Sequence record: SRR31156797_36538
Strand: one strand, 5' to 3'
DNA length: 40,219 nucleotides
Made by a program: the position numbers and the translations under genes. A model generated the notes under the pieces. It did not search any database. It was not told the origin of the DNA and was given only the letters and a program-made list of their open reading frames with translations. This document shows positions 1-1,540 of the stretch, piece by piece. Every line of letters starts with the position of its first letter. The stretch's first letter is position 1.

Positions 1-30
1 ATAAAGTTTAGCTTTAAAGCTTTTAGAAAC

Positions 31-56
31 TCTCTACTTCGGTGGGGCGTTTTTTG
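31..56 (+). terminator. Intrinsic terminator of the upstream + strand gene (probably eno, whose TAA may be at 2-4)
   Basis: CTCTAC-TTCG-GTGGGG hairpin with a UUCG loop and G-U pairs, followed by CGTTTTTTG. The eno identity is inferred only from recalled Vibrio synteny. Confidence 0.65.
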
Positions 57-70
57 TTTTGGGGCTGGTG

Positions 71-181
71 ATAAGGAAAGTCAGTACCGAACACAAACAC
101 GCATTAATTCATCCATGAAGCTCCAATTTGCCATCCATGGCAAATAAGGTTTGCTTATCGATACTCACTTACCTTCCTTAT
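71..181. repeat. Y-shaped palindromic element, copy 1 (two CATCCATG-core hairpins in an outer stem)
   Basis: Outer imperfect inverted repeat 71-90/158-181 and CAAAC/GTTTG inner closure. Hairpins TTCAT-CC-ATGAA (108-119) and ATTTGCCAT-CC-ATGGCAAAT (126-145). Confidence 0.75.
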
Positions 182-225
182 ATATTCTCAGAAACTAGCA
201 GGTATGAATTATTTTGTTGAGGGGG

Positions 226-319
226 GAATAGGTGTGCTGGAGCAAACATACAAGGGCATGGATGCCCTTGTTTAAGTGCACATGGATGTCTTGAACGGTT
301 TGCGGAAGTATTCCTATTC
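226..319. repeat. Y-shaped palindromic element, copy 2 (inverted relative to copy 1)
   Basis: Outer GAATAGG/CCTATTC and GCAAAC(242-247)/GTTTGC(298-303). Hairpins ACAAGGGCAT-GG-ATGCCCTTGT (250-271) and ACAT-GG-ATGT (280-289). Confidence 0.75.
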
Positions 320-325
320 TGCCTG

Positions 326-1540
326 TTAATCCAAAGAAGAAATCGCCTCAATCCGTCTTTTCTCTAGTTCATCTCTAATTGCTTTACCCTGAAAACCATC
401 AGCAATAATGTCTTTTACCTCGATGCTTAGTGCAGCTTGGTAAGCGGCTTCAAAAATGGCTTTTTGTGGATAAGGATTATCTTCACACCCTAAACGGCCA
501 GCATGGTCGGCTTGGCAGCAAAGTAAAACTTCTTCTAAACGCTCTGGTTTACGCCATACGTCGAGTTTATTGAGAATTTTAAGTTTGGTACTAGGTTTGA
601 GTTCTTCCGCTCTGTGGACGTTAGAATGCTGCTCACACACGAGTAGCGCTAATTCTTTAAACTCATTGGGCACGCGTACTCGTTCGCAGAGTTTTTTGAT
701 GATTTTCACACCCGCATGGCAATGCATTTTATGGCTTGGCCATTCTGATTTTGGCGTGACGCCTTTACCTAAATCATGCACTTGAGAAGCAAAGCGAACA
801 GGTAGGGATGATGAAAGTAGGGATGCTTGCTTTGCTACCATCAGGGTATGTATTCCGGTATCGATTTCTGGATGCCACTTCTCAGGTTGAGGAACGCCAA
901 ACAAGCAGTCAAGTTCCGGCAGTACAACCTTTAGTGCGCCACAATCACGTAATACAGATAAGAAGACTTCAGGGTTTTGGGTCGACAGTGATTTGTGCCA
1001 CTCCTGCCATACACGTTCAGCCGTTAGGTGCTTAAGCTCGCCACTTAGAGCAATTTGAGTCATCAAAGCCATTGTTTCATCAGCAATGGTAAATCCTAGA
1101 TGATGAAGTTTGGCTGCGAAACGAGCGAGACGTAATACACGCAGAGGATCTTCAATAAACGCATCAGATACGTGACGTAAAATACGATCATTGAGATCCC
1201 GTTGGCCGCCGTATGGATCGATGATGTTGCCTTGCTCATCTTGCGCCATCGCATTGATAGTGAGATCTCGTCGAATCAGATCTTCTTCCAAAGTGACATC
1301 TGGTGCGTAGTGGCACTCAAATCCTGTGTAGCCAGTACCTGATTTACGCTCTGTACGAGCCAAAGCGTGCTCTTGTTTCGTTTTGGGGTGCAAGAATACC
1401 GGAAAGTCTTTACCTACAGCAGTAAAGCCGTTGCTAAGCATTTCTTCGGGGCTACTACCAACCACTACCCAGTCTTTATCGTAAACCGGGATATTCAGTA
1501 ACTGATCGCGAACTGCGCCGCCAACTAGGTATATATGCAC
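326..1540 (-). CDS. cca: Multifunctional CCA tRNA nucleotidyltransferase / HD phosphatase
   Basis: [22 protein letters not shown] and [12 protein letters not shown] class II nucleotidyltransferase motifs; HD domain (HDLGK); 404 aa. Confidence 0.97.

Follow-up and report, generated by a model that had tools for sequence, protein, structure and literature searches.

Two Y-shaped palindromic elements lie back to back behind the stop codon of a cca-type gene in the window, the stretch of 40,219 nucleotides analysed here (record SRR31156797_36538), and each carries two CATGGATG loops. Judged by its sequence, the doublet is homologous to YPAL and TwoAYGGAY elements and is predicted to work like them, as a compact variant rather than a formal member, since it falls below the Rfam cut-off and is without YPAL ends. 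The explanation that we find reasonably probable as a whole is that the two copies are old insertions of YPAL/TwoAYGGAY type which would have been moved by an IS630 transposase and whose core may have been kept for putative CsrA binding.

Copy 1 (70..178, - strand) is Y-shaped with an outer stem and belongs to a type A subfamily (GATAAGCAAAC), and copy 2 (218..327, + strand), likewise Y-shaped and abutting the cca stop, belongs to a type B subfamily (GGAGCAAAC). Each scores 81 bits on our covariance model R1, in whose training set both were included. The core of copy 1, 60 nt from CAAAC to GTTTG, occupies 94..153 on the - strand and contains a long hairpin (126..145), the loop of which, CATGGATG at 132-139, fits CANGGANG, and a short hairpin (108..119) with its loop at 110-117. 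The 60-nt core of copy 2 lies at 243..302 on the + strand, with a long hairpin at 250..271 (loop 257-264) and a short hairpin at 280..289 (loop 281-288). There are five CATGGATG matches in the whole window, against a shuffle mean of 1.35, and four of them are the loops of the two elements. Direct reading bears out the original prediction that two elements are present at this position with this order of parts. That prediction had also taken the differences between the stems of the two copies for covariation that arose at the locus, and here it does not hold: types A and B each also occur singly elsewhere in Vibrio, so the differences between copy 1 and copy 2 are differences between subfamilies. 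The 5′ ends of the copies are separated by a spacer (179..217) with no detectable IS630-type end, the end profile scoring it no better than shuffles. An intrinsic-terminator-like hairpin with a T run (26..60, + strand, stem 32-47) forms the context outside the elements on one side, and on the other is the cca-type gene itself (326..1540, - strand), with PolyA_pol, PolyA_pol_RNAbd and HD domains.

Folded as RNA, copy 1 reaches -36.9 kcal/mol (z -4.4) on the - strand and -24.2 kcal/mol (z -2.8) on the + strand, while copy 2 reaches -48.0 kcal/mol (z -5.5) on the + strand and -29.6 kcal/mol (z -4.2) on the - strand. Both copies fold better than shuffled sequences and both fold better on the strand bearing CATGGATG. 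Among 52 outer stems, found by pattern alone, there are 42 G.T pairs against five A.C pairs, which identifies the AYGGAY strand as the folding one and makes the pair divergent. The structure and order of the elements had therefore been read correctly but on the complementary strand, copy 1 being on the - strand and copy 2 on the + strand. In single-sequence and consensus folds there was no sign of the features of the extended Pseudomonadota form of TwoAYGGAY (three extra hairpins, a 3′ pseudoknot and 5′ short repeats).

To place the doublet in a family, GTDB was scanned for GCAAAC plus two loops, giving 120 matches at 119 loci. GTTTG, which was not in the search pattern, follows the second loop by 9-12 nt in 56 of the 120 matches, mostly from Gammaproteobacteria. 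Filtering kept 60 distinct sequences, of which 51 were aligned together with the two window copies, three of another architecture and six near-duplicates or truncated copies being left out. Double-sided changes occur in every one of the 18 outer and 8 hairpin pairs of this alignment, and 85.8% of its paired cells can pair, compared with 58.9% in shuffles (0 of 500 reach the observed value) and 32-42% in slid controls; the covarying structure that had been predicted is thereby supported. A second alignment, of 129 further copies, was fitted to the model and so leans towards the model's structure. The outer stems stay about 90% paired despite divergence to 37-53% mean identity. R1, which was built without Yersinia sequences and trained on CATGGATG loops only, finds matches in 29 of 151 Vibrio-genus genomes, in a search that counted no more than 25 per genome, and in 36 of 151 gammaproteobacterial genomes (about a quarter); element-bearing genomes have 1 to 90 matches each. 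Deeper searches gave 7, 10, 13, 90 and 43 matches per genome in one set, 26 and 89 in another, and 25, 66, 39 and 22 in a third, the values of 7 and 10 being those of the two sister genomes of the window organism. Further copies in related genomes had been anticipated, and their number and patchiness support the proposal of a family of non-autonomous palindromic elements. The neighbours of 47 loci (86 ORFs) are unrelated housekeeping genes, on which ground a cis-regulator of one gene family was rejected, and no transposase family was matched among them. Viral contigs held 17 pattern matches, none of them convincing as an element by eye, and among the matches listed for a phage collection there were only 36-nt matches within coding regions.

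How such elements move is best seen in the Vibrio genome with 90 matches, where 47 copies in 45 loci, picked from high and low scores, were read and the ends called in 42 of them without use of the flanks. An identical triplet stands on both sides of 32 of the 42 and is always TNA, a 3-bp target duplication; permutation among the 36 copies with TNA on both sides gave a mean of 12.3 identical pairs and a maximum of 24 in 200,000, against the 32 seen. The lengths cluster at 159, 169 and 184 bp. A sister of the window organism has an IS630 element, with DDE_3 and HTH domains, whose two ends correspond to those of the MITE (23/27 and 26/31 identity), and this IS630 has 26/27 end identity with copies of a second species. 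Another Vibrio has a related element of the IS630 family that ends in TACCA and lies between matching TNA triplets. At infB-rbfA, a type B copy is flanked by TTA repeats in two genomes and the site is empty in all 19 readable of 23 other loci. At this site the insert is bounded by ends of IS630 type and includes both arms of the outer stem, so that an origin of the stem from target DNA was rejected here. By their ends and flanks, the young Vibrio copies are MITEs of 140-185 bp with the Y core as interior, IS630-type ends and a TNA duplication. It would seem likely from these shared ends that an IS630 transposase acting in trans also moved the ancestors of the window copies. Counting against this route, the IS630 of the sister genome has unequal flanks, TTA and TAA. 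The 90-copy genome has no IS630 (DDE_3) match, and 17 copies from the window and the two sister genomes show neither an IS630 end nor a TNA duplication. A candidate remnant of an IS630 end, TCATACC at 201-207 (- strand), was rejected, as the sisters do not conserve it and its score is no better than that of shuffles. An IS4/IS5-type (DDE_Tnp_1) mobiliser was also rejected, there being no convincing TACC/TNA end pairs among 20 loci of five high-copy genomes.

In being short, non-coding and sharing ends with IS630, the young copies resemble the IS630-dependent MITEs (RUP with IS630-Spn1, and the TA-flanked ERIC and Correia elements), as reviewed by Delihas (2008). Those elements duplicate TA, whereas here there is a TNA triplet and a structured interior conserved across orders. 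A sister genome has core-less 159-bp MITEs with the same IS630 ends; in genome G002, six loci hold a second MITE of about 159 bp with these ends and the TNA duplication but no Y core. Separately, at six loci of genome G033, IS630 copies are nested or in tandem, inserting into each other. In the literature on Vibrio MITEs, searched with few subscription journals covered, there was no paper with IS630 plus a target site duplication.

The family itself is not new, contrary to what had been supposed, as TwoAYGGAY, YPAL/RU-2 and Rfam Ysr224 cover close relatives. YPAL was described by De Gregorio (2006), as cited in Delihas (2007, 2008). The suggested likeness to YPAL proved sound: two YPAL copies on Yersinia plasmids score 75.9 bits on R1, and YPAL/RU-2 has the same core order and junction as the window copies. 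The Yersinia copies match Rfam Ysr224 as well as the RU-2 sequence printed in PMC2759123 (part compared by eye). At about 167 bp YPAL is close in length to the young Vibrio copies (159-186 bp), and both are intergenic with a target duplication, which for YPAL is given as 3-26 bp in the Delihas review. The differences are in the ends: YPAL has IS1182-type ends and long duplications, the young Vibrio copies have IS630 ends and the 3-bp TNA, and the window copies have no ends, with neither YPAL termini nor the long target duplication of variable length which YPAL makes at dyad-symmetric targets. Ysr224 (RF02770) lies on the opposite strand of YPAL, and its only match in the window reaches 12.4 bits against a cut-off of 70. 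TwoAYGGAY (RF01731, clan CL00106; Weinberg 2010) has two hairpins with AYGGAY loops on a basal stem, as here, and shares with the present elements a variable copy number, divergent doublets and covarying stems with conserved loops. Checked against Rfam, as had been proposed, the doublet does match TwoAYGGAY (copy 1 at 68-180, 20.8 bits; copy 2 at 203-345, 24.9 bits), but below the gathering threshold of 43 bits, the window copies being compact compared with the Pseudomonas form. Only one of 12 family loci scanned passes this threshold, a training-set member at 55.4 bits. The Minerva preprint (10.64898/2026.09.22.753630) reports that 68.4% of Pseudomonas TwoAYGGAY doublets are divergent and describes copy-number variation and a mobile-like spread of TwoAYGGAY; a transposase, a target-site duplication, YPAL, MITE and Vibrio are all absent from its main text. 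Among the works listed in literature searches that covered few subscription journals, none connects YPAL with TwoAYGGAY or proposes IS630 as the mobilising element.

The conservation of the core centres on the loops. Across the 129 further copies, loop 1 reads C127 A128 (T100 A16 G11 C2) G129 G126 A129 (T117 C6 A5 G1) G127, counts in which copies within one genome are not independent, and loop 2 varies in the same way. The loop A and the GGA are kept in 96-100% of these copies and the variation falls at the two N positions. The inner A-T pair is lost from 11 and 32 copies in which the A is nevertheless retained, so that the loop is ANGGAN closed by C-G. The GGA starts of the two loops are 22-24 nt apart; two sites at such a spacing suit one CsrA dimer, so that a single dimer could bind both loops. 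Variation of the ANGGAN type is that of the Rsm consensus CANGGANG, the CsrA/Rsm site (PMC6849547), and CsrA binding has already been proposed for TwoAYGGAY by Gardner and Eldai (PMC4333381). From their sequence the loops look like docking sites for CsrA, a reading that we consider somewhat better than even. Hairpin loops with GGA that fit the Rsm consensus are a feature of the titrating sRNAs CsrB, CsrC, RsmY and RsmZ as well; the elements here differ from these in having two sites only and in being dispersed and mobile, and their binding of CsrA is putative. Two results speak against a role in host mRNAs. Co-occurrence with csrA is not significant (32 of 36 genomes with the element and 91 of 115 without it, p = 0.23, tallies which include two unpublished genomes, G211 and G313), and one genome with at least 25 copies had no csrA match. 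Between co-directional genes there was no strand preference, with sense to antisense ratios of 6:7 for young and 5:8 for old copies when gene direction was taken from a rough codon model. Among three RNA contig sets, an RNA-library contig of a relative spans positions 2-270 with 18 differences; such contigs show neither strand nor level, and DNA was possibly present, so that the contig is given no weight here.

If the loops were only inherited, or belonged to another binder, the elements could act as generic 3′ stem-loops that stabilise mRNA or serve as RNase III-type processing sites, a role already suggested for YPAL. The copies are mostly at gene 3′ ends, with 18 of 32 fully called young copies between convergent genes, the outer stems remain paired while their sequences diverge as described above, and the Delihas review reports co-transcription of YPAL with an effect on upstream transcript stability. 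A stabiliser would, however, require the stem and not two near-invariant CANGGANG loops together with invariant junction bases, all of which are kept from Vibrio to Yersinia and Legionella; we consider a generic stem-loop unlikely. The reading that we slightly prefer is that the core, when transcribed, would be kept both as a CsrA-binding module and as a 3′ stabiliser.

The same core is also found between other ends. The Yersinia plasmid copies have duplications of 20 and 13 bp, and the left end of YPAL matched 46 plasmid records, in all three inspected of which an IS1182-type transposase adjoins the match. In genome G003 the core is bounded by GTAAC ends, and two of six complete copies show, by eye, an exact duplication of 8 bp. 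The GTAAC end also precedes a fragment of DUF6444, which we take to be a mark of IS66-type transposases, and these ends are probably IS66-type. At six further loci of G003 GTAAC-ended elements have a different palindromic interior, so that cargo of more than one kind has been taken up by a single end pair. Three loci of genome G170 have a further end type, inverted repeats like CTTTGTACACGAC, around the same core.

A core found between three kinds of ends could instead be a signal in single-stranded DNA (or RNA) for a mobilising enzyme of its own, with IS ends captured secondarily and conservation due to recognition by the enzyme or to palindrome repair by template switching. Matched terminal repeats are missing from many copies, among them all 22 examined in Thiopseudomonas and 21 of 23 from four other Vibrio genomes. 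Divergent doublets are recurrent (10 pairs among 39 Thiopseudomonas copies), the orientation of the elements is unbiased relative to host genes, and G.T pairs form in single-stranded DNA too. Against such an enzyme, the 86 ORFs at 47 loci yielded no transposase family, and the filled and empty sites at infB-rbfA differ by an insert with IS630-type ends that includes both stem arms; template switching, for its part, leaves the invariant unpaired bases unexplained. A link to REP/REPIN elements and HUH (RAYT) transposases had been suggested and was not borne out, none of five Y1-transposase loci in five element-bearing genomes, a small sample, having an element nearby. DDE transposases, rather than HUH enzymes, are indicated both by the ends and by the target duplications. 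An enzyme of the core's own seems to us distinctly improbable. The 39 copies of Thiopseudomonas (G171), with their 10 divergent doublets, include no convergent pair within 400 bp; each copy has an outer stem of its own, and in many a GCAC motif precedes the core by about 40-45 nt.

At the cca locus, the doublet does lie between the terminator and the cca stop as predicted, but enolase, which had been placed in the window, is not there; in a sister genome the neighbouring convergent gene is eno. The terminator adjoining copy 1 in that genome comes after a second, altered version of the eno 3′ end and not after eno itself, and similar terminators are present at element-free eno-cca loci of other Vibrio. 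An altered second eno 3′ end with its own terminator was seen behind eno in several Vibrio (positions 2445-2640 of sister locus L144, and four further loci); window positions 1-60 are the tail of such a duplicate, and the duplicate contains two short insertions with partial complementarity to each other, a hint of a structured RNA derived from a gene tail. The doublet is present at the cca 3′ end of the window and of two sisters and at none of 24 other loci, seven of which have an eno-type neighbour, so that the comparison of eno-cca regions that had been proposed does reveal element-free loci in other Vibrio. Between the window and the two sisters the cores differ at 1 and 0 of 120 sites (copy 1 at 1 and 0, copy 2 at none), as against 7 and 9 of 43 columns in the spacer (16-21%; Fisher p 4e-4 and 3e-6) and 109 of 168 and 69 of 172 four-fold cca sites (40-65%). 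This is good evidence, from three genomes only, for purifying selection on the cores after loss of the ends. Recent transfer of a neutral doublet among the three lineages would agree with its restriction to these genomes and with the frequent recombination in Vibrio, but is very improbable given that the spacer differs by 16-21% and the cores by 0-1% within the same stretch. In both sisters the cca stop codon is within the 3′ arm of copy 2 (2899-2912 in L144), so that the coding sequence is extended by four codons from the element. Unrelated palindromic repeats occupy the same cca 3′ end at two loci in other Vibrio, which suggests that it is an insertion hot spot.

Taken together, the doublet would go back to two old insertions of YPAL/TwoAYGGAY type that came to lie back to back behind cca, with one copy stemming from each of the two Vibrio subfamilies and the ancestors having been moved by an IS630 transposase supplied in trans. 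No transposon ends are left at this locus, and the cores are conserved. Once transcribed, the core may present two ANGGAN loops on a long stem, both of which one CsrA dimer could bind. In 3′ regions such an RNA may serve as a small module that binds CsrA and, through its stem-loop, as a stabiliser. Where two convergent genes enclose a divergent pair, transcription coming in from each side would yield an RNA with one loop-displaying copy.

The family and the idea of CsrA binding are already in print. What is new here is a candidate mobiliser in Vibrio (IS630, with TNA), the finding of one and the same core with ends of several IS types, and a locus at which the core has stayed conserved although its ends have been lost. 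Most of the copies tested are below the Rfam cut-off and so are missed by annotation. The 2026 preprint leaves open both the multiplication of TwoAYGGAY and whether its mobility and Csr/Rsm regulation are connected; with the findings given here, both points become accessible to simple assays. Rather more speculatively, the two-loop Y could be a portable CsrA-binding RNA module that has been picked up as MITE cargo by each of several unrelated transposon families, namely IS630, IS1182 and probably IS66. If this were true, TwoAYGGAY and YPAL would form one superfamily, and bursts of transposition would spread CsrA decoys with two sites each through a genome, as many as about 90 of them, some of which, the present divergent pair included, would be kept by the host after their ends decay. 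Transposition would then offer bacteria a way of acquiring CsrA titration and of adjusting it.
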